Positions 11,454 through 26,938 of a stretch of 63,082 bases of DNA are shown one piece after another. Source of the DNA: a virus. The notes under the pieces were generated by a model that had not been told where the DNA came from, ran no database searches, and saw nothing but the letters and a program-made list of their open reading frames with translations. A program made the position numbers and the translations under genes. The first letter of the stretch is position 1. Each line of letters starts with the position of its first letter. The DNA lies in the IMG/VR virus record IMGVR_UViG_3300045988_178671, positions 1 through 63,082 of that record. One strand, given 5' to 3'.

Positions 11454-13508
11454 TTATTCTTCCTCCAAAACTTGCGGCCCTATATCGCATAAGCAATTAA
11501 TGTCCTGATCTGCAAGTCCAAATCTGCCCGGGGCTTCTGTTTCGTCGCCCGTAATCGGGTTTATAAAAAGTTCATTGATACCCACAGTTTGCCCGTCCAT
11601 TTCTAAATGCCCTACATGGTGGTCGATAACGCCCTTTGTAGAGATCCACTTTTTGCCAGTTACATACGGGGTAGAACGGTAGGCGTCAAGCGCACTTTCG
11701 CTAATCGTGGCTAAGGTTTCGGTTTGAACAATGGTCCGCACGCGATTATACACGGTCTGCCCGTTTGCGTCGTCCGTTGGCTCGTAGCCGTTTTCAGAGA
11801 AGAAAGCCAATACCGCGCGGTTTATGGTTTCGTTGCTTTCCCCGTTTTTGACTAAGGTTTTAATGATAGCGTCTAAATCTTTAAGGGTGGTATGTTCAAT
11901 ACTGTCGGCCCATTTAAGCGCGTATTTCTCGGCCCAAAATCTAACGCGGTCTTGCATATCCTTTTTGCCCGTAAATCTAAAATCTTTGTTCGGGTTAAGG
12001 CTCTGTACGTACCCCTTTTCAAATTCAAGCCCTGCGTTAAAAATGGTAGAAAGCGCGGGTATTTTAAGCAGAAGCAAGGCTTTAACTTGGTCTTTTTGGC
12101 TTCCAAATACTGCGTCATAGGTTAGTGCGGTGTCTTTGTTCCCGTTTTCTAACCAGTCTTTAACCAGTTTATGCTGATTGGAGAAATGCTTCTTCATCGC
12201 TTCTTCCATAACCGGTCCTAGTTCTTCATAAAGTTTTAATTTAGCGGCTTTATGGGCGCGTTGCTGTGCGTCCGTAGGCTCGATAATGCGCAATTTCTTA
12301 ACGCCCTTATGTTGCATAGCAGGGGCAGACAAAGAGCCAAACGCCGAAAGAATAGGATCCGGCACTTCATCGCCGCCGGCTACATCAGAGAAAGGCAAGC
12401 CCAAGGCCCTTTTGCATTCATTAAGCGGGAATTTCTGCGCCAAAATCTGCAAGGCCTGCGCTTTGGTAAGCCAGTCTTCCTCTAACGCTTTTACGCGGCT
12501 GAAATCATAGGCCATATATACGCTTTCGTCTTTGTAGAAATCCGGGATAAGGTTTTCATTAATCGCGTCAGACAGCAGGCGCATAAGCGGGATAATGGTT
12601 GTTTCGTAGAAAATCTTTTGTTGTTCTTTGGTGTTAAACTGCGGGGCAAATTCAAACAAGCCCACCAAGGCAGGAGGCACGCCCATAGCAGAGAAAATTT
12701 GTTGTTGGCTGTATCTCTGCCCTTCGGCAAATTCCATATCTTTATGGGAAGTTTTGAAGCTCTCGTACTTGCCGCCCTGTTCCAAAATAGCGGTGCGGTG
12801 TGCTTTTTCGGCCCCGGCGTGCATATCATTAAACGCGCGCAGGATTTCTTCTTTATCTTCCTTGCGTACGCCGCGCACGCCTTCCGAGAACGTGATAACG
12901 CCGCCAACGCTTGCCCCGTTCTTAAAGAAGGCAAGGTTAAACACTTTTGCCGCGTTCATAATTTCCGCGTCTAGTTCGCACAGTTTGGCGCGCGGGAAGC
13001 CCTCAAATAAGTCATAGGCGTTCCCTTCGTAGATGTGGATAATGTCGGTAAGTTCAAAGTTTGTAGCTCCGTTTGTGGTGGTTACGCGGTAGCCGATAGG
13101 ATAGCCGCGGCCGTCTTTACGGATAGACACGCAGGGCGCAGGGATAGGGATTAAAGAAGTAGGGCGGCCCCGGTTATCGCGGCCGTTTTTAAGAAAATAG
13201 ACGTTGCCATAAATAAGCATTTGGCACGCGTAGATTTGCTTAAAGATGTTCTCGTTAAAGTAAGGCGAAGGCTGATAAAGCAGATCAAGCAGAGGGTCTT
13301 TGGTTTTGCGTTCGTAGGAAACTTCTTCACCGTCTGCTTTATAAAGTTTTAGTTCCCCGTTACAGCAAGCCGTGGCAATAGCGCGGATATTGGTCGCTAA
13401 AAAGCTATTTGGCCCGGCTTTGATGTTAGGCCCGCCGAATATGATTTGCCATACGCGGCCTGCGCCGGAAGTAAAAAATTTCTGTTTTAGTTTTTGTAAG
13501 ATGTTCAT
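11454..13508 (-). CDS. Portal protein fused to a MuF / SPP1 gp7-like head morphogenesis domain, 684 aa
   Basis: N-terminal about 400 aa is portal-like. The C-terminus carries the MuF-type motif VIDHHVGHLEMDGQ...FGLADQDINCLCDIGP. Confidence 0.75.
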   Translation of the reverse strand: MNILQKLKQKFFTSGAGRVWQIIFGGPNIKAGPNSFLATNIRAIATACCNGELKLYKADGEEVSYERKTKDPLLDLLYQPSPYFNENIFKQIYACQMLIYGNVYFLKNGRDNRGRPTSLIPIPAPCVSIRKDGRGYPIGYRVTTTNGATNFELTDIIHIYEGNAYDLFEGFPRAKLCELDAEIMNAAKVFNLAFFKNGASVGGVITFSEGVRGVRKEDKEEILRAFNDMHAGAEKAHRTAILEQGGKYESFKTSHKDMEFAEGQRYSQQQIFSAMGVPPALVGLFEFAPQFNTKEQQKIFYETTIIPLMRLLSDAINENLIPDFYKDESVYMAYDFSRVKALEEDWLTKAQALQILAQKFPLNECKRALGLPFSDVAGGDEVPDPILSAFGSLSAPAMQHKGVKKLRIIEPTDAQQRAHKAAKLKLYEELGPVMEEAMKKHFSNQHKLVKDWLENGNKDTALTYDAVFGSQKDQVKALLLLKIPALSTIFNAGLEFEKGYVQSLNPNKDFRFTGKKDMQDRVRFWAEKYALKWADSIEHTTLKDLDAIIKTLVKNGESNETINRAVLAFFSENGYEPTDDANGQTVYNRVRTIVQTETLATISESALDAYRSTPYVTGKKWISTKGVIDHHVGHLEMDGQTVGINELFINPITGDETEAPGRFGLADQDINCLCDIGPQVLEEE

Positions 13509-13511
13509 TTC

Positions 13512-14729
13512 CTATACCGTTAAAAATGTCCTGTTTGCCTGCTTGTCGTACTCATACACCGCGTACCTAACCGCGGCAATAGCGTCATCGTGTTGCTTAT
13601 TTGGCTCTAATTTGTCTAGGTACTCGCCCTGCAAGTTCTTTTTCCATTCGTACCCGTCAAATTCTTCCTGCAAATTCTTACTGTCCTTATGAATAAAAAT
13701 CTTGTACTTTTTAACCGTGTTAATCATTCCTACCACGCCCGCGCGCTTATCTGAGGGGTGTACATTGTAGCCCGCCAAAAAAATATCATCTATGCGATCC
13801 GGCTCCGCGCAGTCTGCTATGATTTCCGTTTCCTTGCTTACTTCGGCCCCGTCCATAAGTTCTATTAGTTCGGTGTTGGTTATGTGCCGTTTATAGAGGA
13901 TTTCTGACAAGTAAACTTCATTCTCTCTAAACTGCGCACGGATTAAGGCCGTAGCGTGGTTATAACCGAAGTCCAGCCCCAAAAATTCACCGTCAAAGTG
14001 TTTTGGTGCCGTACTGTTATCGTACAACTGCCATTTTTCAAATATCCGCCCTTCTGTTTGCCCCCATTCGCCCAGTACAAGCATTTTGTAAAGCCGGGGG
14101 TTTGTTTCCTTCATAGCCAAAAGGCTTTTAACGTATTCCGCAGAAAGAAAGGGATTATCTTTGTAAGTGCTATTAATCAAGGCCACTCCCTTTTGCGGTA
14201 ACAGTTTTGTTTTAATCCAGCCCCTAGCATCGCCGGGGTTAAGGCTTAAAATCGTTTGGTTTTGCTCCCAGCCCTCCGGCTTCGGTGCGCTTAAACGTGT
14301 TAGCAGAAAGCTATAATCGTCATAAGTGAAGTCGGTCGCTTCTTCCAGCCAAATGATATTGAACTCGGTAGATTTAATCTTATCAACGTCATCAAGGCCG
14401 AAAAATAGAATATCGCTTTGCTTTGGGTTTCTATCTTTCAAATCAAACTGGTAAAAGCGTTCCGATTTGTTAAAGTTATCCCTATCATAAACCCCAAAAT
14501 CAGCCAAGGCGGATAAGAATTGCTTTATCACGCTGTGCTGTAAGGTGCTGGCTATTTTGCGGCATATCCCAATATGTAGCCCCGGGTGTTGCAGGGCGTA
14601 GGATATAAGGCATTGCCTGATAGAGTAGCTTTTGCTAGAACGCACGCTTCCAACATTTACAACCGTCGGAGCGGGGTTTCTATAATTCTTTTCAAAGACC
14701 GTAGTACAAGCTATTTTCTTGGCTTGCAT
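13512..14729 (-). CDS. Terminase large subunit, 405 aa
   Basis: Walker A-like VGSVRSSKS; C-terminal nuclease-like acidic residues; directly upstream of the portal. Confidence 0.8.
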   Translation of the reverse strand: MQAKKIACTTVFEKNYRNPAPTVVNVGSVRSSKSYSIRQCLISYALQHPGLHIGICRKIASTLQHSVIKQFLSALADFGVYDRDNFNKSERFYQFDLKDRNPKQSDILFFGLDDVDKIKSTEFNIIWLEEATDFTYDDYSFLLTRLSAPKPEGWEQNQTILSLNPGDARGWIKTKLLPQKGVALINSTYKDNPFLSAEYVKSLLAMKETNPRLYKMLVLGEWGQTEGRIFEKWQLYDNSTAPKHFDGEFLGLDFGYNHATALIRAQFRENEVYLSEILYKRHITNTELIELMDGAEVSKETEIIADCAEPDRIDDIFLAGYNVHPSDKRAGVVGMINTVKKYKIFIHKDSKNLQEEFDGYEWKKNLQGEYLDKLEPNKQHDDAIAAVRYAVYEYDKQANRTFLTV

Positions 14730-14735
14730 AAAACT

Positions 14736-15143
14736 TCACTTCTTTTTTTCTTTCACAATTTCAAACACAAAGTTGCGCGGCTCTACATCTAGGGCCACTT
14801 CTTTGCGCTCTACATAAAGGCCCATAACCTTGCCTATAAGCTCTTCGCACTTAATAGCGGACGAGTGTTGCTTGTCTTTAAGCGAAAGACCTTTAAGCCG
14901 CATAAGTTCGGCAACGTGTTGCTCTAAGGTGTAGTTAAATTTGGCGGCGTTTTTTGCGCCTTCTTTTGCTAATTCTTCTTTGATTTCAGGTTTGTTCAGG
15001 TTTTCCGAGCCGATAGAATAGGCCGTTTTCTTTGAATATCCGGCCTTGCGTGCGGCTTCGGTAGCGTTAGAGGTGCGCAGGTATTCTTTGCAGAATTTAA
15101 CCTGTTTTTTGGTTAGCTTTGTTTTTGTTTTCTTAACAGCCAT
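14736..15143 (-). CDS. Terminase small subunit (Terminase_2-like HTH), about 135 aa from the internal Met
   Basis: KQVKFCKEYLRTSNATEAARKAGYSKKTAY motif. The annotated upstream extension would translate through a terminator hairpin, so I prefer the internal start at 15143. Confidence 0.65.
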   Translation of the reverse strand: MAVKKTKTKLTKKQVKFCKEYLRTSNATEAARKAGYSKKTAYSIGSENLNKPEIKEELAKEGAKNAAKFNYTLEQHVAELMRLKGLSLKDKQHSSAIKCEELIGKVMGLYVERKEVALDVEPRNFVFEIVKEKKK

Positions 15144-15174
15144 AAAAAAGCCCCTCTCGTGATAGAAAGGGGCT
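15144..15174 (-). terminator. Rho-independent terminator on the minus strand, immediately upstream of the small terminase start
   Basis: AGCCCCT / AGGGGCT stem with a 12-nt loop, followed by a U6 tract on the minus-strand transcript. Confidence 0.6.
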
Positions 15175-15253
15175 TTCAAAGCAGTCAAGGCAAAAAATAT
15201 GCCGAAAAACTGCGAGCTTGCCTAGCTCTTAGTTAATCAGCATTTACAATATC

Positions 15254-15282
15254 AGTATAAATACTTTAGCAAAAAAAGTCAA
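15254..15282 (-). promoter_or_regulatory. Near-consensus sigma70 promoter on the minus strand (late-promoter candidate): -35 TTGACT, 17-nt spacer, -10 TATACT
   Basis: Read from the reverse complement of 15254-15282; lies about 80 nt upstream of the terminator and the terS start. Confidence 0.5.
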
Positions 15283-15381
15283 GGGTTTGTATCTTTTTTC
15301 TTTTTAGTGGAATGGCTAAATAGTCTTGTACGGCCTTTGTCATAAACTCTCCAACAGGCAGTTAGATTTTTTCCTTACCTG

Positions 15382-15756
15382 TTAGGCCCCTAAATAATTC
15401 GCCGCGCAACTTTTTGGTCTTGCTTCCGGTGCCAGTTCAAAACTAATACGAACGCCAAAAACCCCCAAAATACGGGAAAGCGTGTCTAAAGACGGGTTGG
15501 CGTTGGCGCCATCTAAGGTGTCATAAATACAAACACGGCTTAAACCGATTTGGCGGGACACTTTGGATACGCCCAACCACTTGACAGCGCGCAGAATACA
15601 GCTAAAGAACAGTTCGCGGTTGCCGTCTTTTTTAAATCCTTTGACCGCCAGCTTAACAAATTCCCGCGCGTCTTCGGCCGTCCATTCCATTTTGGCGTCA
15701 AATTCGTCTTGTGTCAAAAAATCCACTTTGATTTCTGCTTTTTTTGATTTATTCAT
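15382..15756 (-). CDS. Addiction-module antidote protein (HTH antitoxin, HigA-like), 124 aa
   Basis: C-terminal HTH (QIGLSRVCIYDTLDGANANPSLDTLSRIL); 8-nt overlap with the upstream toxin gene. Confidence 0.6.
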   Translation of the reverse strand: MNKSKKAEIKVDFLTQDEFDAKMEWTAEDAREFVKLAVKGFKKDGNRELFFSCILRAVKWLGVSKVSRQIGLSRVCIYDTLDGANANPSLDTLSRILGVFGVRISFELAPEARPKSCAANYLGA

Positions 15757-16072
15757 AAACTTCCCTCCAGACGGTTAAATACCCGCGGGCCTTTTCTATA
15801 TCTTTCTTTTGAGTTCCTTTATCGCCGCCGCAAAGCAAAATAACCAGTTTGTCTCCCTCGTAAGCAAAGTAGATACGCAAGCCGGAAGAAACGTGCAGGC
15901 GGAGTTCCCACAGGCCGCCTTTTAAACTTTTGGCCGCCCCCGTATTGCCGCAGGCCAGCCGCTCTATATACATCGCGGACAAACGCTTCTCTTTAGCGGC
16001 TAACTGCTTCATCCAGTCCAGCACGGGCGTTTTGCCCTGTAAGGTAAAATAGCGTATCTCTTTCATATCCAT
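15749..16072 (-). CDS. Addiction-module killer protein (RelE/ParE superfamily, HigB-like), 107 aa
   Basis: LLCGGDKGTQKKDIEKA motif of this toxin family; toxin-first gene order; an operator-like TTGTAA/TTACAA repeat just upstream. Confidence 0.6.
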   Translation of the reverse strand: MDMKEIRYFTLQGKTPVLDWMKQLAAKEKRLSAMYIERLACGNTGAAKSLKGGLWELRLHVSSGLRIYFAYEGDKLVILLCGGDKGTQKKDIEKARGYLTVWREVYE

Positions 16073-16103
16073 ATTGTAAGTTATAATTTACAATTTTACA
16101 AGT

Positions 16104-16134
16104 AAAAAAAGGGCCTATTTTTTAATCTAGGCCC
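16104..16134 (-). terminator. Rho-independent terminator on the minus strand, closing the cI operon
   Basis: GGGCCTA / TAGGCCC stem followed by a U7 tract on the minus-strand transcript. Confidence 0.6.
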
Positions 16135-16142
16135 TTGTCAAA

Positions 16143-16436
16143 TTATAAGTGGGTGCCAATCGCTTGATTAATGGCAGCTTTCTGCGCAGAGTTTGATGCA
16201 AATAAAGAATTCCAATGTGTGCGCAAAATATCTTCTACGTCAATAGTGTTAATGTTCGTGCCCAAAGAAACGGGGGTGGTTCCTCCGCATTGTTTAAATG
16301 TCTCGACAATACCTTCTATAATGTTATAAATATCGCAAGCGAGCCCATCTAATGTAGGATTTTGCGAACGTTGATTTTTAGGACAAATATTTTTCAATGC
16401 TTTATAAGCATTTATTTTAAATTCCAACCCAGTCAT
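16143..16436 (-). CDS. Hypothetical protein, 97 aa; last gene of the cI operon
   Basis: ORF with a 10-nt gap to the upstream gene; AT-rich. Confidence 0.4.
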   Translation of the reverse strand: MTGLEFKINAYKALKNICPKNQRSQNPTLDGLACDIYNIIEGIVETFKQCGGTTPVSLGTNINTIDVEDILRTHWNSLFASNSAQKAAINQAIGTHL

Positions 16437-16446
16437 ACATCCTCCT

Positions 16447-16692
16447 TTACTTCGTCAGATTTTCAATAATGCAGTCGTAGACTTCTTTGTTGTCCACTTC
16501 CGTTTTTTGGCCCACGGTTGTGCCGGAGTTGTTATTGGCAGCGTTCGCGGCGGCTTTTGTTTCCGCCAGCATACGTTGGGCCGCCGCCTTATTTTCGCAC
16601 AAGGCGTACTGTTTGCGGGTGCCGTTTATCATCAGGCTTCCCCAATACAAGGGCGAGCCGGCGCGTTTATATACTGACGGTAATTTTGCCAT
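16447..16692 (-). CDS. Stand-alone integrase Arm-type (AP2-like) N-terminal DNA-binding domain protein, 81 aa
   Basis: MAKLPSVYKRAGSPLYWGSLMINGTRKQYAL...AAAQRMLAE resembles the N-termini of tyrosine integrases, including both integrases in this window. Confidence 0.4.
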   Translation of the reverse strand: MAKLPSVYKRAGSPLYWGSLMINGTRKQYALCENKAAAQRMLAETKAAANAANNNSGTTVGQKTEVDNKEVYDCIIENLTK

Positions 16693-16740
16693 AGATTAAA
16701 AACCTTTACAACGTTTTCGTTCCGCCATCGTACGGCACGG

Positions 16741-17688
16741 CTATTTTTTAGATAAAAGCCTATCTCCGTAGTTTTCCTTGAGTTCTTGATAAGTGGTGTA
16801 TCCTAAATAGTTCAAATCCCACCTATTTAGAATATCTAGTTTCCCATCCAAAGTTAGAATCACAGCAAAATTCTCATCTTCCAGGGAAATGATATCTGGT
16901 AGCATTAAAAAATTATTCCACACTCCTTTAATATCTAGATATGGACAGTATCTATATTTTTTTAGGTCCATTGTTAAATTCTGGAGGATTTTTTTCTTAT
17001 CTATGTAAACGATTCCGTCTTGTAAATAAGCATATTTATACCAAGCATTCTCTCCGATTAGTCTTGTTTTTATTCTGTGACAGCCAAAAGGGTTTAGTGT
17101 CCAACGCGAAACTCCATAACAAAAATCCTCATTTGCTAAACTTCTATCGACAGCACATCTTAAAAGTTTCGATAACTCGGTTTTTTCTATCAAGTCGCCA
17201 TTAATAAAAATTTGAGTTCCTTTTAAATTTTTAACTTCATCATATATTTTTTTAAAATCATGAAGGTTCTCTTTTTTAAAAGTAACCTCAAAGTTTTTTA
17301 TTTCTTCTGCTACATATTCCTTATACGATGGTAATTTTTTTATAATAGTTAAGGTCCTTTTAAATCCTATGCTTCTGCTTTCTGTCATTCTTAGTGTTAA
17401 TATCCATTCTTTGTTTTGCAGAAAAATAACAGGAGCAGATATATTTTCATTAATTGTAGGTGCTCTTTTTTTAGCCAATGAACAATGTTTTTTATTTATA
17501 AAATCTTCTGAATAGTGTGGTGTCCCATAAAAACCGCCTCTTCCAGTTGTTACCGTGAAAATAACCTCTTCTACCTTCTCTTTTTTGTCTCGAGTTGGCG
17601 TGGAGGTTTTTTGTGACTTCGATGTGCTAACTTTGACGCAAAAAATAATAAAAAAAGCCACACTTAAGACAAATATTAATGGCCCCAT
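16741..17688 (-). CDS. Membrane-anchored protein of unknown function (N-terminal TM helix), 315 aa; translationally coupled to the cI-like repressor
   Basis: TAATG overlap with the repressor stop at 17688; very AT-rich; hydrophobic N-terminus MGPLIFVLSVAFFIIFCV. Confidence 0.5.
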   Translation of the reverse strand: MGPLIFVLSVAFFIIFCVKVSTSKSQKTSTPTRDKKEKVEEVIFTVTTGRGGFYGTPHYSEDFINKKHCSLAKKRAPTINENISAPVIFLQNKEWILTLRMTESRSIGFKRTLTIIKKLPSYKEYVAEEIKNFEVTFKKENLHDFKKIYDEVKNLKGTQIFINGDLIEKTELSKLLRCAVDRSLANEDFCYGVSRWTLNPFGCHRIKTRLIGENAWYKYAYLQDGIVYIDKKKILQNLTMDLKKYRYCPYLDIKGVWNNFLMLPDIISLEDENFAVILTLDGKLDILNRWDLNYLGYTTYQELKENYGDRLLSKK

Positions 17689-18323
17689 TATTTTCGTTCC
17701 TTTTTCTTTTTTACTGGGCGGTAAACATTTACCACCTTGCCGATAATCTCTACGTTTTGAGCAGGTTTGATTATCGAGGTGCAGGCAGGATTATCGGGGA
17801 TTAATTTTACTTCTTTTCCTTTTGGAAAAAATCTTTTTATCGTGCTATATTCATCCTCAATGCGCGCAAGTACAACATCTCCAGGAGTTGCCTCGGCATC
17901 TGGGTCCACAATAATATAATTGCCGTGATAAATTGAATTTTGTGGATCTTCAGGATCTACCATACAATTTCCCTCTACGCGAACAGCAAATTGTTTTTTG
18001 TTTGACTTCTTAATGGGTAAATAACTTTCCAATTCTTCCAGAATAAACTTTTCTTCCGTTGCTGAAGATGTACCTAGAACAGGAATAAGCATTACTTCAT
18101 TTTGGTCTTCCAAGGATAAATTCGTAAAAACATTCTCCAATTCCTCGGGAGTAACTTTTAGCACATTGGCAATCTTTTTAATAGCCGCTTCGCTAGGTTT
18201 TTGCCTTCCAGAAATATAATTTGAAATCAAGGCTTTTGATAAACCTGTTTCCTCTACAAGGCGTGCTTGTGCGCCACGTTCTATTCCATTGTTCCATTTT
18301 TTTAACAAATTTTCAAAACTCAT
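17688..18323 (-). CDS. CI/LexA-like repressor: XRE-type HTH plus S24 peptidase domain, 211 aa. A Cys sits at the nucleophile position (GNCM).
   Basis: N-terminal HTH (LSKALISNYISGRQKPSEAAIKKIANVL). The C-terminus aligns to LexA/lambda CI, with VEGNCM matched to VEGNSM and IKRF matched to VKRL. Confidence 0.75.
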   Translation of the reverse strand: MSFENLLKKWNNGIERGAQARLVEETGLSKALISNYISGRQKPSEAAIKKIANVLKVTPEELENVFTNLSLEDQNEVMLIPVLGTSSATEEKFILEELESYLPIKKSNKKQFAVRVEGNCMVDPEDPQNSIYHGNYIIVDPDAEATPGDVVLARIEDEYSTIKRFFPKGKEVKLIPDNPACTSIIKPAQNVEIIGKVVNVYRPVKKKKERK

Positions 18324-18371
18324 TTTGCTTTACTCTCTCGTCGTAAAATAGGGAAACAACATAACTATCCC

Positions 18372-18400
18372 TTGACAAAGTATATAAACGTTTATATACT
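18372..18400 (+). promoter_or_regulatory. Rightward early promoter (-35 TTGACA, 17-nt spacer, -10 TATACT), overlapped by the 22-bp perfect palindrome AGTATATAAACGTTTATATACT (operator candidate)
   Basis: Read directly from the sequence; lies in the divergent region between the cI-like gene and the early operon. Confidence 0.55.
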
Positions 18401-18576
18401 TTAACTAACAAGGCGCAAGCCTACAAAATTTTAAGAGCCGCGCGTGGCTCTTACAGAGGAACGGCAGAAAAATTCAAACCGTCCTTTGCCCGGGGAATAA
18501 CAGAGCTAATACCCGGGACAATTATAAAACACGGCGCAGGTTGGCAACCCGCGAACGAAGCCCACCAAAAGGGCGG

Positions 18577-18688
18577 CTGATTAACAGATAAAAAACAGTT
18601 TTTGAAAGGGGCAAAATCCTTTCAAAGTTAATCAGCAAGGCTAGTATCGGGGCAGCCACCCCATAAAAGATACTAGCCCTTTTATTTT
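18577..18688 (+). promoter_or_regulatory. Structured 5' leader element: nested inverted repeats, then a terminator-like hairpin with a U tract
   Basis: Nested repeats CTGATTAAC...GTTAATCAG and TTTGAAAGG...CCTTTCAAA. Hairpin GCTAGTATC...GATACTAGC followed by CCTTTTATTTT. There is no ATG anywhere in 18401-18745. Confidence 0.45.
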
Positions 18689-18745
18689 ACCAAATTGAAA
18701 TTGATAATCAATAAGCGAATTTAATAATTACGGAGGAATAAACAA

Positions 18746-18967
18746 ATGATAGATGTAGGCGCAATTAAGAAAGGAACGCATTTCTTTCACCCGGGAATTG
18801 GGGAACTGGTGTTTGACAAAGAAGCCACCGCAGAACTTCTTGGTTGCACTCCCGCCAACCTGTTGAAAATTCGCGGGAAAGACGGCTTAAACCCTTTACG
18901 GGCGCGCGTCAACCGCAAAACAGTTTACGCACAGACGGACATTGAAGAATATCTGTCCTGCCGCTGA
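18746..18967 (+). CDS. Small HTH DNA-binding protein (Xis/AlpA-like; possible Cro analogue), 73 aa
   Basis: First gene of the early operon; HTH ELLGCTPANLLKIRGK. Confidence 0.5.
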   Translation: MIDVGAIKKGTHFFHPGIGELVFDKEATAELLGCTPANLLKIRGKDGLNPLRARVNRKTVYAQTDIEEYLSCR

Positions 18968-19317
18968 TTTGGCCCGCAAGGGCTCCCGCCGGCCTCCTGT
19001 GAAGGCTACCCTACAACGGCGGGAAAAATTTACCCCGAATTGAAACACAAACGGGGTATGGAAATGCCGAAGCTTGCTCTCTGATAGGTTGTAGTGTTGC
19101 GATACTGAGGGGGTCGCAACTGGGCAGGCAAAGGCAGGCGGAAATGATTACCCCGCTCGGGTGCGCCCGTTATAGCGCACGATTTGAAAGGTTTAGCAAT
19201 GGATTACGAAACAGGACTGGCCGTGTGCCAAGCAATTTTGGATTTGCTGTACATCGCGCTTATTTGCGCCGCACCGCTCTTTTGGCGCGATTTTAAAGAG
19301 TTCATCCGAGGGTAGTT

Positions 19318-19653
19318 ATGCAAGAAAGAACTTACACCAAAGAAGAAATAGAAGCCGCCCGCACAAGCGCGCGATATACGGCAAACGGAATAATCAGAAT
19401 TTGGGCATCCTCAATGGGGGCCGAAGCCGTACGCTTGGCCGAGCAGGTAAAAGACGTTTACGAAACCGATTTGCGGCGTTTACTGCGTGGCGCACCAACC
19501 TTGCAAGAGCATATACACGCGCACCTAAACCCCGATCACGGCGATTTACCGGTATGCGGCAAAAAGCCGGAGTGCCGGAACGCGGCAAACTGTAAGACTT
19601 GCACCGCGTACGAAGATTTTAAGGACAAAATGCGGGATAACTTCCGCGAATAA
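19318..19653 (+). CDS. Hypothetical protein with a C-terminal Cys cluster, 111 aa
   Basis: ORF with RBS; motif CGKKPECRNAANCKTC. Confidence 0.4.
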   Translation: MQERTYTKEEIEAARTSARYTANGIIRIWASSMGAEAVRLAEQVKDVYETDLRRLLRGAPTLQEHIHAHLNPDHGDLPVCGKKPECRNAANCKTCTAYEDFKDKMRDNFRE

Positions 19654-19674
19654 TCAAAAAAGGAGACCATACCA

Positions 19675-20955
19675 ATGACAAACGGCATCATATCATTGAC
19701 CGTAGAAAACATCAAAAAAATCAAGGCCGTAACCATCCGCCCAAGCGGCAATGTGGTGGAAATTACCGGCCGCAACGGGCAAGGCAAAAGCACCGTGTTG
19801 GACGCGATTTGGTGGGCGTTAAAAGGCAAGGATAATATCCAAACCGCGCCCATCCGCAACGGCGAACAAACGGGCAAAATCACGCTGGAAGTGGAGCAGT
19901 ACATCGTAGAGCGCACGTTCAAACGCAACGAACGCGGCGACGATTACACCACCAACATCAAAGTGATTACCAAAGCCCGCGCCCAAATGCGCAGCCCGCA
20001 GGCGGTACTGGACGGCTTTACGGGTATGTTGGGCTTTGACCCGTTGGCCTTTATGCGCCAAACACCCAAGCAACAGTATGACACCCTGCGCGGGCTCTGC
20101 AAATTAGACGTGTACGTGGAAGAACTGGACAGACAATATAAAGACCTGTTTGCCCAACGTACTGAGGTCAACCGCGACGTTAAAACGTGCGAAGCGCGGC
20201 TTGCCAATATGGTAATCCCCGCCGGCGCGCCGACCGAGCGCGTGGACGTGGCCGCTTTGGTTGACAAAGTGGAAGAAATCAACGCGGATAACTCCGCCAT
20301 CGCGCAACGGCAACGTATGCGCCAAACCTTGCTCGCTGATAACGTCCGCCGCGGCGAAGAAGCCAAAAAATTATACGCTCGGCTTGCCGAAATTGAAAAA
20401 GAAAACAAATCCGCCGCCGAACAAATCGGAACGATTACGGATTATCTGCGCGACAACAAACCGCAGGACGCTTCTTTTTACAGCGAAAAAATCAAACAGG
20501 CCGAACAAATCAACAGCATTATGGATTTGCGCGACAACCGCGCTTTGGAAGAAAAGACGCTCCGCGCCGCACAGAGCAAGGCGGACGGCTTAACCGCCCA
20601 AATGCAAGGACTGCAAGAGCAAAAGCGCGCGGCCATCGAATCGGCCCACCTGCCAGTTTCCGGCTTGGAATTTGGCGACGGGGAACTGCTTTTAAACGGA
20701 GTGCCGCTCGAACAGTTATCGACCGCGGAGCAGTTAAAGCTGTCTATGGATATCGCTATGGCGGAAAACCCCAAACTGCGCGTGATTTTGCTTAAAGACG
20801 CGTCGCTGTTAGACCCGCAAAGCACCGACTATGTACGCCGCCGCGCCGTGCAGGAAGGGTACCAAGTTTGGGAAGAACGCGTATCGGCCGAAGGTTCCGT
20901 CGGATTCGTCATTGAAGACGGAGAACTTAAACAGGAAACCGAGGTGGAAAAATGA
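19675..20955 (+). CDS. SMC/SbcC/RecF-like AAA ATPase with a central coiled coil, 426 aa
   Basis: Walker A GRNGQGKST; Walker B/signature ILLKDASLLD; long coiled-coil middle; AAGGAG RBS. Confidence 0.65.
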   Translation: MTNGIISLTVENIKKIKAVTIRPSGNVVEITGRNGQGKSTVLDAIWWALKGKDNIQTAPIRNGEQTGKITLEVEQYIVERTFKRNERGDDYTTNIKVITKARAQMRSPQAVLDGFTGMLGFDPLAFMRQTPKQQYDTLRGLCKLDVYVEELDRQYKDLFAQRTEVNRDVKTCEARLANMVIPAGAPTERVDVAALVDKVEEINADNSAIAQRQRMRQTLLADNVRRGEEAKKLYARLAEIEKENKSAAEQIGTITDYLRDNKPQDASFYSEKIKQAEQINSIMDLRDNRALEEKTLRAAQSKADGLTAQMQGLQEQKRAAIESAHLPVSGLEFGDGELLLNGVPLEQLSTAEQLKLSMDIAMAENPKLRVILLKDASLLDPQSTDYVRRRAVQEGYQVWEERVSAEGSVGFVIEDGELKQETEVEK

Positions 20956-21404
20956 AAATCACCAAAGTAAAAATCAAATCCTGCGACACGGAAATCGCCT
21001 ACCTGGAATCGGAAGCGAAAGACTCCAAAGAGGTGGTTTTTAAAAGTTGGGATTTACAAGCCAAAGAGTTCCTAGACGCTTTGCAAATTTTGAAGCCTTA
21101 CGTTATCTCGGCCTTGGAATTGCCGGAGGATTATGGCGAAACACTGAACGTGCGCGGCCTTACCATCAAGTACGAGGAGGAAGGTATCGGAGTAGTCATA
21201 TCGGCCATTAAGGGCTTATCAACGCTATCTGCGCCGCTGTGCCTTAATACACCGTATATTCCTCCGCTGCGAAACGAAAATGTTACCACGCCGATGTGCG
21301 AGGATTTGGAATACGACGTGGAAAAAATCACGGAGATGGCGCGCAAATTCATGCAAGGGCAGTACCGCGCGCAAGGCCAACTTTTTGACGAGGACAAAAA
21401 ATGA
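20952..21404 (+). CDS. Hypothetical protein, 150 aa
   Basis: ATGA-coupled to the flanking genes. Confidence 0.4.
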   Translation: MKITKVKIKSCDTEIAYLESEAKDSKEVVFKSWDLQAKEFLDALQILKPYVISALELPEDYGETLNVRGLTIKYEEEGIGVVISAIKGLSTLSAPLCLNTPYIPPLRNENVTTPMCEDLEYDVEKITEMARKFMQGQYRAQGQLFDEDKK

Positions 21405-22270
21405 ACACATTAACCGATAAAGAATACTTCGCCTATCCGGCGATTTCCAAGTCGCAACTCCACGCGTGGACGCGCGACAACCCGATGGCTTTTTGGCGCG
21501 GATGCCTTTTGAACCCGAAACACACGCCAGTTGAAGAAAACGACGCCATCTCAAACGGCAAACTGCGGCACACGCTTTTATTGGAGCCGCACAAGGCAGA
21601 AAGCGAGTTTCTCGTTATTGAGGGCGGTCGCGGATTTTCCACCCGCAATACAGCAGCGTTTCAAAAAGTAATTGCCGATAACCCAAATGTTACGGTTGTA
21701 ACGCAGGAAGAGTACGACCTTGCCAAACTGCAAATTGAAACGCTCAAAAGCTACAAGCCCGTGCAAAACCTGCTCGCCGGTGCGAGCGTGGAACAGGCGT
21801 ACTTTTGGACGGATAAAGCTACGGGCCTGCCGCTTAAGGCAAAACTGGACTTAATCAAACGGATTAAAGAGGGCGTGCTTATCGTGGAATACAAAACCAC
21901 AACAAAAGGTTTTGACCAAATAGAACGCGGCTTGGATGTGATGGGTTGGCAATGGGATGCCGGTATGCAATGCAAAGCCGTAAAAGCCAAGTACGGCGAA
22001 ATGCCCTTTCAAATGCTGTTCATCGTGCAAAGCCAAGCCGAGGGAGAAGAAAACCGCATCCGCCTGTTCGTAGTAGACCAAACAGATTTAGACACCTGCG
22101 TGTACTATGTGGACAGCGTTCTTGCGGAAATCAAAGAGCGGTACGGCCAATGGGGCCTCGGCAATCCGGAAGCGTGGAAAACGAAACTCGCCCACCACAC
22201 CTTCCAAGGCTATCAAGGAACGGCGTTCTCGTTTGCCTTTGATAAAGAATTGGCGGAAATGGGGAATTAA
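21401..22270 (+). CDS. PD-(D/E)XK recombination exonuclease (YqaJ / lambda Exo-like), 289 aa
   Basis: D...EYK motif (KLDLI...LIVEYKTT); immediately upstream of RecT. Confidence 0.65.
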   Translation: MNTLTDKEYFAYPAISKSQLHAWTRDNPMAFWRGCLLNPKHTPVEENDAISNGKLRHTLLLEPHKAESEFLVIEGGRGFSTRNTAAFQKVIADNPNVTVVTQEEYDLAKLQIETLKSYKPVQNLLAGASVEQAYFWTDKATGLPLKAKLDLIKRIKEGVLIVEYKTTTKGFDQIERGLDVMGWQWDAGMQCKAVKAKYGEMPFQMLFIVQSQAEGEENRIRLFVVDQTDLDTCVYYVDSVLAEIKERYGQWGLGNPEAWKTKLAHHTFQGYQGTAFSFAFDKELAEMGN

Positions 22271-22272
22271 TT

Positions 22273-23124
22273 ATGGAAAACAATACTCAACTTGCTATCA
22301 AAGATGCCGACATAGTCGTAAGCGGCGCGCGCGAAATCAGTGAATACTTGCGAACGCTCATCCAATCACCCAAGTTTATTACCAACCCCATGCAAAACTT
22401 GAATGACCGCATTTTAAGCTTCGTTTACCAATGCAAAAAGATGAAGCCGGAAGATTTGGCCCAATGTACACGCGGGTCTATCGCGGAAGCGTTTAAAACC
22501 TCGTTGGATGTGGGTCTGCCTGTTAACGCTTACCAGTTGGCTTACTTAACAAAATACGGCAAGGAATTGACTTACCATATCGGCTACAAGGGGTACCTGT
22601 ACAAGATACGGCAACTGCGCAAAGGCGCCTATGTGGAAGTTCATTTGTTGTGGGCTGACGATGAATTTTCCTACCAAAGCCAAAGCGGCCGCGCGGAATA
22701 TACCTACAAACCGGCAAAACCCGTACGGTCGGATTTTGGGACAGTAACAGGCGGTTTTGTGTATATGGCGTGGACACAGAACGGGCGGGAGTACTCCTGT
22801 ATTCACACAATGAGCCGCGAAGAAATTGATAAAGCCAAAAAAGCTTCCAAAGCCCAATACGGGCCGTGGGTTATGTGGACTGGCGAAATGATGAAGAAGG
22901 TACTTTTGCGCCGCGCCTGCAAACTTGAATTTATCGGGGAGCCGGAAATGGAGCGGATCATTGAAATTGACAACAAAGAGTATGACCGCCCCGCGCACCA
23001 AATGCAGCAACCCGATACCGTCAATTACGCGGATGTTCAACCGTTGGACGAACCGACGCAGGGCGGCGTTGTTTCCGCAGAAATCATAGACGAACCCGCC
23101 GATACCGGGGCGGCGGGCGAGTAA
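22273..23124 (+). CDS. recT: RecT-family single-strand annealing recombinase, 283 aa
   Basis: GPWVMWTGEMMKKVLLRRACKLE aligns to the E. coli RecT segment GPWVTHWEEMAKKTAIRRLFKYL; central region is also similar. Confidence 0.8.
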   Translation: MENNTQLAIKDADIVVSGAREISEYLRTLIQSPKFITNPMQNLNDRILSFVYQCKKMKPEDLAQCTRGSIAEAFKTSLDVGLPVNAYQLAYLTKYGKELTYHIGYKGYLYKIRQLRKGAYVEVHLLWADDEFSYQSQSGRAEYTYKPAKPVRSDFGTVTGGFVYMAWTQNGREYSCIHTMSREEIDKAKKASKAQYGPWVMWTGEMMKKVLLRRACKLEFIGEPEMERIIEIDNKEYDRPAHQMQQPDTVNYADVQPLDEPTQGGVVSAEIIDEPADTGAAGE

Positions 23125-23178
23125 GCCCAAGGGCGGCGGCGTTTACGGGAGAGCGCCGTCGCCCCTAAAAGGAGAAAT

Positions 23179-23661
23179 ATGTTTAACAAATACGGATGTT
23201 ATGCAATGGGTGTAAAACTGAAACCGCACCGCGAAGATTTGGAACACGGCTTGCAAAAAGAAATCTGTACGTTTTTAGATTTCCAATCCGCAACACTGCC
23301 GATGCTCTATTTTGCAGTACCAAACGCGCTTAAATTTTTAAGCACGCTCAAAGATACCCGCCGTATCAGCGCGGCCTACGCCAAAATGCGTGCCGAAGGT
23401 TTTAAAGATGGCGTCAGCGATTTGGTGGTAGTTATAAAACGCGATAACCGGCTGAAACTGGGGTTTTTTGAGCAGAAACGGCCTGCCACCTACAAAACTA
23501 GCGAAAAGACCGGCAAACGCGTTATAAATACCCCCGCGGGCAAACCTACGGAAAGCCAGTTGGCCTTTTTGGAAGAAGCGCGAAAACTGGGGGCTTACGG
23601 GGCCGTGTCTTACACGTTGGAAGAGTTTCAGAATCATTGGCAGGAATTTCTAGAAAGTTGA
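23179..23661 (+). CDS. VRR-NUC domain nuclease (PD-(D/E)XK), 160 aa
   Basis: GVSDLVVV...GFFEQKRP...ESQLAFLEEARKLGAYGAV matches the VRR-NUC D/E-K/Q pattern. Confidence 0.55.
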   Translation: MFNKYGCYAMGVKLKPHREDLEHGLQKEICTFLDFQSATLPMLYFAVPNALKFLSTLKDTRRISAAYAKMRAEGFKDGVSDLVVVIKRDNRLKLGFFEQKRPATYKTSEKTGKRVINTPAGKPTESQLAFLEEARKLGAYGAVSYTLEEFQNHWQEFLES

Positions 23662-23668
23662 GGCGACT

Positions 23669-24430
23669 ATGGGAAAGAGGTTTACAGACACCGACAAATG
23701 GACCAAACAATGGTTCGGCGATTTAAGCATACGTGAGAAGGTACTGTGGCTGTACTGCTGTGACGCGTGCGACGCGGCCGGAATAGCGGATTTTTCCACC
23801 AAATTTTTTAGCGTGTCGGTAGGATTCCCCGTTAAAAAAGAAACATTGGATAAAGCCTTTGGAGACCGCATCGTGTGGTTGGAATCAAGCAAGTTCTTCA
23901 TTCCGTCCTTTATCGAATTTCAGTACGGGCAACTTACCGAAGCCTGCAAGCCGCATAAACCGATTATCAAAGAATTGGAAAAACTGGGGCTTTTGGTTAT
24001 GGAAAACGGAAAGGGTACCGTAAGGGTATTGAAAGGGTATTCAAAGGGTATTAATACCCTTGAAGAAAAAGAAAAGGAACAAGAACAAGAAAAAGAAACA
24101 AAAGGGGTTGCAGGGGAAAAGGAACCCTTTGCCGATTTTTGGGCCGTATACCCCAAACAGAGAATCGGCAACAAGGACAAAGCCCGCGCGGCGTTTGTGC
24201 AAGCCGTCAAACGCACCGGTAAAACGCCGCAGGAAATCACGGACAAAGCGGCAGAATACGCCGCAAGCGAAGAAGTGGCGCGCGGATTTGCCAAGGGCGC
24301 GCAGGCGTGGCTGAATGACGACCGCTTCCTGCGCAATTATGCACCGGCCAAGACTTCCGGCGCCGCGTTGGCGGCGGCAAGAGAGGCCGGCACGGCCAAA
24401 ATTGACGAGATTTTCGGAGGTTCCAAATGA
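23669..24430 (+). CDS. Replisome organiser / replication initiator, 253 aa; carries the origin iterons internally
   Basis: N-terminal replisome-organiser-like domain. The C-terminal FWAVYPKQRIGNKDKARAAF domain is shared with the phage B initiator. Directly upstream of the helicase loader. Confidence 0.6.
   Translation: MGKRFTDTDKWTKQWFGDLSIREKVLWLYCCDACDAAGIADFSTKFFSVSVGFPVKKETLDKAFGDRIVWLESSKFFIPSFIEFQYGQLTEACKPHKPIIKELEKLGLLVMENGKGTVRVLKGYSKGINTLEEKEKEQEQEKETKGVAGEKEPFADFWAVYPKQRIGNKDKARAAFVQAVKRTGKTPQEITDKAAEYAASEEVARGFAKGAQAWLNDDRFLRNYAPAKTSGAALAAAREAGTAKIDEIFGGSK
24011..24061 (+). repeat. Four AAGGGTA(T/C)T iterons spaced exactly 11 bp apart, ending in the palindrome AAGGGTATTAATACCCTT; purine-rich A tract follows (ori candidate)
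   Basis: Iteron starts at 24011, 24022, 24033 and 24044; they lie inside the linker region of the organiser gene. Confidence 0.6.
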
Positions 24431-25131
24431 GCGAACAGTGCATTTTTTGCGGCAAACCGTACCAACAAGTCCGCTACGAAGTATGCGGACAGGTTCGCAG
24501 TATGCTTCAACCGGCCTGTGATTGCGAGGAGCGGGAAGCTGAAAAACAACGCCAAGCCGAAGAACACGCCCGCAAACTGGCCCGCGTGGCCGCGCTTAAT
24601 TTGCCGCCGATTTTCGCCCCGTGGTGGCTCAAAAATTTGGAATGCGAACACGCCGCGGATGCGCAAATCTACGTGGAGGGTTTCCGTCCTCGCCAAAGCA
24701 AGGGGCTGTTCCTCTCCGGCACCAACGGCAATGGAAAAAGCACGCTTGCCGCCGTTATTTGTAAAGAGTTGGCGTACCGCGGCCGCCGCGTGCTGTTTAC
24801 CACGATGACCGAAATGTTAGACAGAATGGAGCAGGGCGTTGGCGGCAACCGTGCGGCGCAGGCACGGCGCACACTTTGTGAGTTACTAGCGTATGACTTT
24901 ATCGTATTTGACGACTACGGACGCGAGAATTACACCCCCGTCCGCCTGCAAAACGTATTTCAAATTGTGGACAGATTGTATACGCACCAAATCGTGTTCG
25001 CTATGACGACCAACCCGGAATGTATCGCGCGGATAGCCAATATCCCCGAAATGGCAGCCATAAACGACCGTATCGGCCAAGTTTTAACACGTTGGGATTT
25101 TGCACGGACATCGTTCCGGCGCCAAAATTAA
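24427..25131 (+). CDS. DnaC/IstB-like helicase loader ATPase, 234 aa
   Basis: Walker A GTNGNGKST; Walker B FIVFDDYG; ATGA-coupled to the organiser. Confidence 0.7.
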   Translation: MSEQCIFCGKPYQQVRYEVCGQVRSMLQPACDCEEREAEKQRQAEEHARKLARVAALNLPPIFAPWWLKNLECEHAADAQIYVEGFRPRQSKGLFLSGTNGNGKSTLAAVICKELAYRGRRVLFTTMTEMLDRMEQGVGGNRAAQARRTLCELLAYDFIVFDDYGRENYTPVRLQNVFQIVDRLYTHQIVFAMTTNPECIARIANIPEMAAINDRIGQVLTRWDFARTSFRRQN

Positions 25132-25285
25132 AGTTTTGAGGTTATGACTGTTTTCCGCCGCATCCTGCGGCCCGCTTTGCAGCACAGCAGAAGCGCAAAG
25201 CAAGAAACAAGAAGAGGAAAAAAGTCAATGAAAAAAGAAGTTATCGGCAACATCCACGAAAATATGGAACTCTTGGAGATGGAAA

Positions 25286-25435
25286 ATGCCAAATGAACTT
25301 AAATTTTGTCCGTTCTGTGGGGAAGAGCCTCAAAAAGCAGGTTTTACCGTTATGCACTGTTGTAGAGTGCTTGATATGGAAATCAGAGTTCCTTTGTCTT
25401 GTTGGAACCACCGAGCGGAGGGTAAGAATGGCTAA
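25286..25435 (+). CDS. Lar-family restriction-alleviation zinc-ribbon protein, 49 aa
   Basis: MPNELKFCPFCGEEP...HCC...SCWNHRAEG matches the Lar family signature (ELKPCPFCG ... AWNRRA). Too short to appear in the supplied ORF track. Confidence 0.6.
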   Translation: MPNELKFCPFCGEEPQKAGFTVMHCCRVLDMEIRVPLSCWNHRAEGKNG

Positions 25436-25718
25436 AACCTTACATCTTACGCTTACCTACCACTGGTGGGAAGAAATAGCCGCCGACCGAAAAACGTGCG
25501 AATACCGCCGCTTTACGGAGGGCTGGCGCAAACGCTTAAACGGTTTAAGACGCGGTGATTCTATCGTATTCCACCGCGGCTATACCGGCCGCACTCTGAC
25601 ACGACGCATAGAGGATATCCGCGTAATTGTGGGATGGGATTTACCCAACGAAGTGTACGAGTATTTCAAAAAACCCAATGAGGAAAAATTCTTCGAAATT
25701 CAATTCAGCAAAGAATAA
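25428..25718 (+). CDS. ASCH (PUA-like) domain protein, about 96 aa from the internal Met
   Basis: KTLHLTLTYHWWEEIAADRKTCEYRR fits the ASCH GxKxxExR-like motif; start chosen at MAKTLHL, which carries an RBS. Confidence 0.5.
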   Translation: MAKTLHLTLTYHWWEEIAADRKTCEYRRFTEGWRKRLNGLRRGDSIVFHRGYTGRTLTRRIEDIRVIVGWDLPNEVYEYFKKPNEEKFFEIQFSKE

Positions 25719-25747
25719 ATAAATCAGAAAAATAAAGTCGTTGAATC

Positions 25748-25777
25748 GGCCCCTATTATGGGGTAGGGGCTTTTTTT
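25748..25777 (+). terminator. Rho-independent terminator directly upstream of integrase A
   Basis: GCCCCTA / TAGGGGC stem followed by a T7 run. Confidence 0.6.
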
Positions 25778-25795
25778 GCAAATTTTGAGGTTTTT

Positions 25796-26938
25796 ATGTC
25801 AGACAAAATTCACTTATATGAAATTCGGCAAGGTGTTTTTCGGTGCCAAAAGCAGATTAACAGTATTCGTTTTGTGAAAGATTTTTACGGAACCGAAAAA
25901 CAATGCGAAACACAAGCACGTGCGTGGTGGGAAGATATCAAATCCCGCTATCGCGATAACTGGGATGGAACAAAAACATGGGACTTTTTCAAAACAAAAT
26001 GGGAGGAATGGGCCCGCTTGGAAACAAAATCCAAAGTTCCTATGGCAGAACGTACGATTACAGAATACAAGTGGGCATTTAAACAGGCTGAACGCCTTAT
26101 TTCCCCGATCCGTTATCTTGCCGATATTACACTTCAAAAACTACGTCTTGCCCGTGGAGTATTGGAAGATGAAGCGCGTGCAAAGGATGCGGACAATTAT
26201 GGCCCCAATAAGTTCGTTGGTTGTATGCGTGCCAGCCTGATGTGGGCTATGGAGCGTGGGTATATGAAAGATATTATATTAGATAACTTCCGCGCACTCC
26301 CAGTAGCAGAGGTAAAAGTAAAAACCCAAAGTATCCGAGAAATAGAACTACTCTTAAAATACGGTAGTACCAAAGAACGTGTGGTTGTTCTATTGGGCTT
26401 TGACTGCGGTTGCCGGCCCGAAGAAATCGCCAATATGCTTATTAACAACTTAGATTTGGAAAACGGTTTTGCCGATATTACACCACACGAAGAAGACAGC
26501 AAGCACGGCATTACGCGGTGGCATCCAAAGGTTTGGAAACGCCGTCAAATCCGACTTACGCCACGCCTTATTGCAGAAATTAAAAAACTGGGCAGCGAGG
26601 GCCCCTACTTGATTTCAAACCAATATGGCGAACCATATACGCAACTGGGATTCCCGCAGTTTTATGGCAAATTTGTAAAAAAAGTAAATGCCTGCATTCG
26701 GGATAAAGAAAAAGACCCCATAAAAATTACGGCTAGTTGCAAAACCTTGCGCAAAAATTACAGCACAAGCCGGCAAGGGCAAGGAGCCACCATTGAAGAA
26801 ACGGGTAAGAGTATGGGCCACGCGGACAGCAAAGTTACGCGCAAAAACTATACGGACACATTAACCCCCGAAATGCGCGCACAGGAGCGGGAACGACTTA
26901 AAAAAATGGATCAGTTTATCGTACCGTTGGAGTATTAA
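25796..26938 (+). CDS. int: Tyrosine recombinase / integrase A, 380 aa
   Basis: C-terminal MGHADSKVTRKNYTD (the HxxR...Y region); Arm-type N-terminal domain. Confidence 0.8.
   Translation: MSDKIHLYEIRQGVFRCQKQINSIRFVKDFYGTEKQCETQARAWWEDIKSRYRDNWDGTKTWDFFKTKWEEWARLETKSKVPMAERTITEYKWAFKQAERLISPIRYLADITLQKLRLARGVLEDEARAKDADNYGPNKFVGCMRASLMWAMERGYMKDIILDNFRALPVAEVKVKTQSIREIELLLKYGSTKERVVVLLGFDCGCRPEEIANMLINNLDLENGFADITPHEEDSKHGITRWHPKVWKRRQIRLTPRLIAEIKKLGSEGPYLISNQYGEPYTQLGFPQFYGKFVKKVNACIRDKEKDPIKITASCKTLRKNYSTSRQGQGATIEETGKSMGHADSKVTRKNYTDTLTPEMRAQERERLKKMDQFIVPLEY

Follow-up and report, generated by a model that had tools for sequence, protein, structure and literature searches.

A predicted membrane-anchored prophage protein from a family encoded directly after phage repressors, with a candidate role in protecting lysogens from other phages

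We analysed a 63,082-nucleotide (nt) stretch of viral DNA (IMG/VR record IMGVR_UViG_3300045988_178671; hereafter the window, to whose full length all coordinates refer unless another contig is named) and focused on an operon that is headed by a CI-like repressor gene. The operon lies on the minus strand at 16104-18323 and consists of four consecutive open reading frames (ORFs) of 211, 315, 81 and 97 amino acids (aa), followed by a terminator. We refer to the 315-aa ORF and its predicted product, which are the main subject of this work, as X, and to the two small ORFs as orf81 and orf97. The features of the operon are listed here.

17688-18323, minus strand: CI-like repressor, 211 aa, with HTH_3 and Peptidase_S24 domains; first gene of the operon.
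16741-17688, minus strand: X, 315 aa, predicted to be membrane-anchored and assigned to the phrog_16260 family; an ORF whose ATG overlaps the CI stop codon.
17623-17685, minus strand: N-terminal transmembrane (TM) helix of X, residues 2-22, from hydropathy and the structural model.
16888-17430, minus strand: conserved core domain of X, residues ~87-267, made up of a ferredoxin-like unit and a Cys-rich part.
16447-16692, minus strand: orf81, a chimeric ORF of 81 aa that joins an integrase N-terminus to a lipoprotein tail.
16143-16436, minus strand: orf97, 97 aa, final operon gene; strong Shine-Dalgarno sequence (AAGGAGG).
16104-16136, minus strand: intrinsic terminator that ends the CI operon (stem, loop, U7).
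16705-18428, no strand assigned: AT-rich block comprising a palindrome, CI, X and 36 nt past X, delimited by blastn and GC content.

The 211-aa repressor is of the CI/LexA type, with Pfam matches to PF00717 (Peptidase_S24, E 4e-21) and PF01381 (HTH_3, E 4e-8) and a PHROGs match to phrog_4, 'transcriptional repressor' (E 9e-34). Its TAA stop codon and the ATG start codon of X have the A at 17688 in common, within the TAATG at 17686-17690 (...AAATAATGGGG...). Between X and orf81 we found no convincing hairpin (folding z = -0.4). The operon ends after orf97 at an intrinsic terminator with a 9-base-pair (bp) GC-rich stem (AAGGGCCUA/UAGGCCCUU), a 10-nt loop and a U7 tail, which folds at -14.5 kcal/mol (z = -2.9); the terminator region is kept in two sister phages (L006 and L008). 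A consensus scan missed this terminator because its loop is longer than 8 nt, the maximum that the scan allows. The overlap of start and stop codons, the two small ORFs after X, the closing terminator and the single N-terminal TM helix of X, which is supported by both hydropathy and the model, had all been described in an earlier note on this DNA, and our analysis confirms each of them.

The same note had recognised no family for X, and we found only one, which is annotated as being of 'unknown function'. Scans with X gave no Pfam, NCBIfam or PADLOC family, and the PHROGs scan gave phrog_16260 alone (E 1.3e-5 over residues 89-182). This entry was also matched by 63 of the 76 aligned relatives of X, with a best E value of 4e-18, and none of the 76 matched any PADLOC model. 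Judged by these profile matches, the X family is phrog_16260. The weak matches to TMEM171 and Cas3b that appeared in the family scans of X, orf81 and orf97 were set aside as noise.

The family proved to be large when it was searched by profile. A word-indexed search of 5.8 billion proteins returned only 8 relatives of X (42-100% identity); a profile built from these, run against 1.84 billion cluster representatives, matched 441 at E <=1e-3 and 210 at E <=1e-10. The 441 are clusters at 50% identity and represent a lower bound on family size, and all of them share a core equivalent to X residues ~87-267. Because X has 441 homologous clusters, its ORF cannot be attributed to chance. Searches of 50,697 GenBank phage records by megablast and tblastn gave no match to the locus, to X or to a consensus-like core, and a scan of genome contigs identified a single metagenome-assembled genome, from Acutalibacteraceae, at 42% identity. 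RefSeq contains proteins identical to X, orf81 and orf97, all annotated as 'hypothetical proteins' and assigned to Candidatus Avelusimicrobium (fimicolum), a genus of uncultured gut bacteria within the Elusimicrobiota phylum. We take the operon to be the immunity operon of an Avelusimicrobium prophage. Relatives of X also occur in cultivable Bacillota, for example in Sporosarcina sp. P3 (WP_099637905.1), and its function can therefore be tested despite the uncultured host.

Some relatives carry accessory domains, namely zinc ribbons, TPR, DUF4236, SAP and TM2. In a few long relatives (~600-1080 aa; P0144, P0145 and P0061) the X core is joined to Mu F/minor-capsid head domains, in part together with DUF2513. 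Given these head-domain fusions, the X core may also be delivered packaged in the virion.

An alignment of 154 sequences revealed a strict cysteine signature in the core. Residues C178, C190 and C203 and the pair C248-P249 are invariant or nearly so, each of the four cysteines being present in 152-154 of the 154 sequences; G192, N199, G202, W216 and P264 are also conserved, and H204 occurs in 132. X itself carries all four signature cysteines and the NPFGC(H)R motif. In a core that is predicted to lie in the cytoplasm, as described below, four invariant cysteines are most likely ligands of a metal, either Zn or Fe-S. An AlphaFold2 model of X, computed from the 76-sequence alignment, reached a mean pLDDT (predicted local distance difference test) of 89.9 and a pTM (predicted template modelling score) of 0.77. 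It shows an N-terminal helix (residues 2-22), a disordered linker and a beta-alpha-beta-beta-alpha-beta unit at 96-167 that is ferredoxin-like, followed by a Cys-rich helical and loop part and then an alpha/beta C-terminal part. We obtained no specific structural neighbour for this model: Foldseek against BFVD returned nothing at E 1e-3 or better, and a sequence-profile search of the PDB with the X family gave 0 matches at E values up to 10.

X has a single hydrophobic segment, at residues 1-21 (Kyte-Doolittle 2.34), and the TM helix is retained even in homologues that are only 26% identical to X. The N-terminus of X (MGPLIFVLSVAFFIIFCVKVS) is uncharged, with neither a positive n-region nor a lipobox, and the helix is followed by a positive stretch (K19, K24, K27, R33, K35, K36 and K38). 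By the positive-inside rule, a charge distribution of this kind predicts a cytoplasmic core. Of 155 family representatives, about half contain a TM segment, which may lie on either side of the core, and the other half lack one, which indicates that the core folds in the cytoplasm. From these features we infer that the core of X lies at the cytoplasmic, inner face of the membrane.

The earlier note had likened the position of X to that of lambda rexAB. Consistent with this comparison, X belongs to the CI operon, and its family follows a repressor in essentially every context that we examined. All of the approximately 10 metagenomic contexts that we read place the X-family gene in a lysogeny module, usually in the order repressor, X-family gene, integrase. 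In L001-L004 an S24-type CI is followed by X, a small ORF, the integrase and host genes; in L005 the order is simply CI, X, integrase; and in L014 a 42-aa ORF and an NYN-domain protein stand between X and the integrase, with CI again ahead of X. L024 has CI, the X-family gene, a DUF3800 gene and the integrase, and L022 has CI, a 62-aa ORF, the X-family gene and the integrase. L018 has CI, a zinc-ribbon/TM protein, a TM-less X core and an integrase on the opposite strand, and in L019 an HTH-only (helix-turn-helix) repressor is followed by a protein with DUF4236 and the X core. In five lineages (the window, L001/L003, L005, L014 and L024) the spacing between CI and the X homologue varies from an overlap of 1 nt to a gap of 15 nt, and the distant relatives in L018, L019 and L022, which share 20-30% identity, likewise stand after a repressor. 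The zinc-ribbon/TM protein of L018 (157 aa, 5478-5951) precedes the TM-less core with a 47-nt overlap, and may supply the membrane anchor as a separate protein.

These observations were extended by searching IMG/VR with a consensus-like core. The search identified 76 loci, 72 of them with a callable ORF, and these fell into 17 clusters at 60% identity. As counted with crude, home-made hidden Markov models, 12 of the 17 clusters have a same-strand CI-like ORF upstream, an integrase follows downstream in 8, and 14 show at least one of these two features. Many of the loci are only a few kb away from a contig end, which agrees with a location near the end of a prophage. The link between the X family and repressors spans phages of several phyla.

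The earlier note had treated X and the two small ORFs as one AT-rich cassette, suggested to be recently acquired, and here our results differ. By blastn, window positions 18428-16705 match L103 (9258-10984) over 1727 nt at 99.5% identity, and the homology ends at both sides. L103 has a different backbone with L001-like early genes, and in it CI and X are followed by HigB, HigA, a full-length integrase and host genes. Of the 22 contigs with an identical X that we read, 13 have the L103-type context and 9 that of the window. The 99.5% identity across two backbones indicates that CI and X recently moved as one block. The mobile unit is thus CI plus X (16705-18428) rather than the three ORFs; orf81 appears to be a scar, and orf97 has a separate history. 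With respect to base composition, the claim of AT-richness holds for X (GC 0.315), CI (0.369) and orf97 (0.371), and for the block 16705-18428 as a whole (0.341), against 0.465-0.51 for the phage backbone. It does not hold for orf81 (0.508), so that the region is not uniform. Nor can low GC serve as a sign of recent import: X homologues have a GC content of 0.30-0.36 in all phages, whatever that of their flanks (0.43-0.49).

On a longer time scale, CI and X have been exchanged independently. We distinguished two types of CI and two types of X, and all four combinations are present: CI-A with X-alpha in the window, CI-A with X-beta in L022, CI-B with X-alpha in L001 and L014, and CI-B with X-beta in L024. 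Between the window and L022 the CI proteins are 72.5% identical and the X proteins 24%; between the window and L014 the values are 26.5% for CI and 66% for X. This two-by-two reassortment indicates that X does not co-evolve with a particular repressor, and we therefore rejected the idea that X is a CI-specific partner.

Comparison with sister phages showed that the slot occupied by X is variable. These phages have early genes at 90-97% protein identity (AAA_23 ATPase) and other content between CI and terminase. The slot of L006 holds a lipoprotein, a 53-aa ORF, a 327-aa protein and a DUF4160/DUF2442 pair; that of L008 holds six small or medium ORFs and HigBA; and L012 has a DUF2335 protein where X would be. 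Elsewhere the cargo after X includes an NYN-domain protein (L014) and a DUF3800 protein (L024). These data demonstrate that X is accessory in this phage lineage. The 327-aa protein of L006 (7590-8573) has a weak match to a TIR effector (PADLOC, E 6.4e-6) and a Pfam match to Nuc_deoxyrib_tr (E 2.5e-3), and is a possible defence effector.

Genes in this position have precedents. Both bstA and rexAB are located downstream of cI, and the rexAB site is a hotspot of mosaic diversity (PMC8585504). The bstA gene lies downstream of the prophage repressor and presumably shares its promoter, in an architecture that is 'strikingly conserved' in its homologues, and has its own terminator (PMC8585504). The lysogeny module of phage TP-J34 includes ltp, which confers superinfection exclusion and is transcribed in the prophage (PMC3952083).

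Considering these precedents, the hotspot slot and the membrane anchoring together, we tentatively propose, at a confidence that falls a little short of even, that X is an exclusion or abortive-infection factor that protects the lysogen from other phages. Under this proposal X would be made in lysogens in step with the repressor, and its core would sit at the inner face of the membrane with a metal bound by the four cysteines. There, as an accessory 'moron', it would either block genome entry at the membrane or abort the infection, and would complement the homo-immunity that the repressor confers. Certain observations weigh against such a role. The promoter scan did not yield a sigma-70 site that could be assigned clearly to the CI operon. 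A cytoplasmic core, as predicted for X, is unusual for exclusion proteins that block injection, such as Ltp, which act outside the membrane. Finally, the very strict adjacency of the family to repressors, across repressor types, would also suit a regulatory role.

X resembles each of the known systems in part. Like lambda RexA and RexB, it is encoded directly after cI in the repressor operon, and RexAB is expressed in the lysogen and has one membrane-bound component. RexAB, however, consists of two proteins, a cytoplasmic sensor and a multi-pass channel, whereas X is encoded by one gene and combines a single TM helix with a Cys-rich core; we found no sequence similarity between X and RexAB and no PADLOC or Pfam match. 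BstA of the Salmonella prophage BTP1 is likewise a single protein encoded downstream of a repressor, but it is soluble, localises to replicating phage DNA and has a self-immunity element, aba, whereas X is predicted to be membrane-anchored. Neither X nor its 76 relatives gave a PADLOC match that would indicate homology to BstA, presuming that PADLOC-DB v2 contains a BstA model. Ltp of TP-J34 is membrane-attached and encoded in the lysogeny module, and the sister phages of the window have a lipoprotein in this same slot. Ltp is a lipoprotein tethered outside the membrane; unlike Ltp, X has no lipobox and has a predicted cytoplasmic core, based on its positive-inside charges and on relatives that are TM-less or tail-anchored. 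No homology between X and Ltp was found.

Should X act in defence or exclusion, it would represent a new protein class in prophage-encoded immunity, and one with a simple genomic finding rule, namely the first gene after the repressor. Genes on the repressor transcript (rexAB, bstA and sie/ltp) are a proven source of anti-phage functions. The genomic logic of a gene that rides with the repressor is thus already known; the protein family is not. It is large, unannotated and outside Pfam, NCBIfam and PADLOC, and has a confident model with no specific solved neighbour. The phrog_16260 entry has no function, and the synteny, the cysteine signature and the predicted structure are what we add to it. 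A more far-reaching proposal, which we put forward as possible but hold with less assurance, is that the X core defines a new and widespread repressor-linked family of anti-phage effectors that act at the cytoplasmic face of the membrane, with a fold not seen before and a four-cysteine metal centre, found in phages from Elusimicrobiota to Bacillota and exchanged together with the repressor.

The principal rival explanation is that X is a component of the lysogeny switch. In ImmR-ImmA-Int modules, ImmA occupies the position between repressor and integrase, and the order repressor, X-family gene, integrase is reminiscent of this arrangement, including at loci with HTH-only repressors. X could accordingly sense a membrane signal or a metal or redox signal and modulate repressor activity, induction or the establishment of lysogeny, and its conserved Cys/His cluster is a possible sensor or catalytic site. 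The X-family gene comes first after the repressor in nearly every context, with S24-type CI and HTH-only repressors alike; the latter, at 124-129 aa, are incapable of self-cleavage. The transfer of CI and X as one block is also in keeping with a role in the switch. We nevertheless consider a role in the switch unlikely. CI and X do not co-evolve and occur in all four combinations of types, and X is entirely missing from sister phages whose early genes are nearly the same. In addition, the CI of the window has its own S24 autoprotease domain, and X, unlike ImmA, has no HExxH motif and no match to Peptidase_M78. If X does prove to be part of the switch, it would constitute a new element of lysogeny control.

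A second rival, which we regard as more doubtful still, is that X serves in lysogenic conversion and changes the physiology of the host (for example envelope, transport or stress response), to the benefit of the host and in a manner unrelated to phage. Its predicted membrane tether and its position for expression in the lysogen would suit such a role, and the slot behaves as a general moron hotspot, with toxin-antitoxin pairs and lipoproteins among its other contents. Against this idea, the X family contains no recognisable metabolic or transport domain, and it is restricted to phage lysogeny modules or to fusions with phage head proteins (Mu F, minor capsid), a distribution that argues for phage-phage or phage-host conflict rather than metabolism. 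On balance, then, we continue to favour, tentatively, the proposal that X protects the lysogen by exclusion or abortive infection.

We turn now to the small ORFs. The earlier note had described orf81 as a free-standing integrase Arm-type DNA-binding domain, and its origin from an integrase N-terminus is borne out: residues 1-47 (16552-16692) align with residues 1-47 of a tyrosine integrase from L024 (365 aa) at ~85% identity (phmmer E 1e-25). The SAM-like core-binding domain of the L024 integrase spans residues 63-165 and its catalytic domain residues 181-351. At the DNA level, the homology to L024 covers window positions 16705-16551, and the 27 nt past the X stop codon match L024 as well. The remainder of orf81 comes from another gene. 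Residues ~44-81 (16447-16565) correspond to the C-terminal tail of a lipoprotein gene, and window positions 16565-16441, which comprise the tail and the ribosome-binding site that follows it, match the 3' end of a lipoprotein gene (118 aa) at 86-93% identity; in the sister phage L006 this gene directly follows CI. The Pfam scan of orf81 (81 aa) was empty at E 0.1 or better, with neither an Arm family nor a catalytic Phage_integrase domain, and a longer fragment (P0011) gave none at 0.01 or better. Rather than being a free-standing domain, orf81 is a chimera that fuses, in frame, what remains of the 5' end of an integrase gene to the 3' end of a lipoprotein gene, with breakpoints in the DNA near 16560 and at 16705.

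Similar stubs are found in related cargo regions. In our alignment the same lipoprotein tail is joined to three unrelated N-termini, and in L008 (7001-7336) a secreted-nuclease-like 5' fragment is fused to it; L016 contains two separate truncated integrase 5' fragments (437-778 and 1836-2039). All homologues of orf81 are 62-118 aa long. Recombination appears to have occurred repeatedly at gene boundaries in these regions, with such stubs as its traces, and orf81 is best read, from its composite sequence, as a scar left when a 'CI, X, integrase' module recombined with a resident lipoprotein gene. It would then be a by-product of the event that brought X next to an integrase gene. The locus illustrates how immunity modules are rebuilt by gene-boundary recombination, which leaves integrase and nuclease stubs behind. 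We rejected the reading that the orf81 tail marks one end of a transposable element that inserts into many genes: a lipoprotein family has this tail as its native C-terminus, with homologous tails in L016 and L101, and phage cargo genes stand on both flanks. That orf81 is instead a functional Arm-type DNA-binding protein, which might, for example, hinder the integration or excision of related phages, we consider improbable: although its integrase-derived segment is the one ahead of the core-binding domain, in the arm-binding position, and the exact ORF is maintained on 45 contigs, and also behind a DUF2335 gene in place of X, it is fused in frame to the tail of an unrelated gene, truncated integrase 5' fragments of this kind are common in related loci and, with the L008 nuclease fragment, form a pattern of recombination scars, it matches no Pfam Arm family, and its ribosome-binding site is weak.

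The last ORF of the operon, orf97, is identical to WP_176777409.1 and occurs on 102 contigs. Scans against Pfam, NCBIfam, PADLOC and PHROGs gave no family for it. We found no relatives in IMG/VR and one in a metagenome scan, in L101; this homologue is 66% identical and differs by an in-frame indel, which argues that orf97 is not a chance ORF. In L101 it stands after an ORF with the lipoprotein tail and ahead of the terminator and HigB, and X is absent. Judging from this arrangement, orf97 is cargo independent of X and belongs to the resident variable slot, whose limits are two conserved junction segments.

Further features surround the operon.

18377-18402, no strand assigned: perfect palindrome, putative operator, from a repeat search.
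16073-16101, minus strand: promoter-like site TTGTAA-17-TACAAT ahead of HigB/HigA, from the promoter scan.
15749-16072, minus strand: HigB-like toxin (Gp49; PF05973, E 2e-9; phrog_3445 'toxin', E 2e-22).
15382-15756, minus strand: HigA-like antidote (PF21716, E 3e-7).

Upstream of CI, the palindrome measures 26 bp (AAAGTATATAAAC|GTTTATATACTTT), is 100% complementary and lies 54 nt from the CI start codon; it is a putative operator. The best promoter-like site found (TTGACA-17-TATACT, 18372-18400, 11/12 matches) is on the plus strand and overlaps it. The 12-nt half-site CGTTTATATACT recurs at 16664-16675, within the integrase stub of orf81; this may be chance, with ~0.5-1 such 12-mer expected per 2.8 kb. 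The 420-nt intergenic region between CI and cro contains three terminator-like hairpins and a 45-aa ORF (18432-18626, minus strand). An Rfam scan of 15000-19500 gave a sub-threshold suhB match and nothing else.

Downstream, the HigB/HigA module lies outside the CI operon, between its terminator and the terminase genes, and is followed by the small terminase, the large terminase and the portal. In L103, on the other phage backbone, a HigB/HigA pair that is 72% identical to that of the window directly follows X. The longest ORF of the small terminase (14736-15188) encodes 150 aa from a TTG start; on identical contigs it is called as 135 aa (L010, 8550-8957).

With respect to the wider window, a 64-kb metagenomic contig (L104) is 100% identical to positions 13000-27500. 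Two convergent tyrosine integrase genes, at 25796-26938 on the plus strand and 27183-28358 on the minus strand, are 245 nt apart, and the window carries a second set of head genes. Together, these features indicate that the window contains two adjacent prophages, back to back. The second prophage has a T7-type portal at 39868-41529 and a 3139-aa ORF at 50574-59993.

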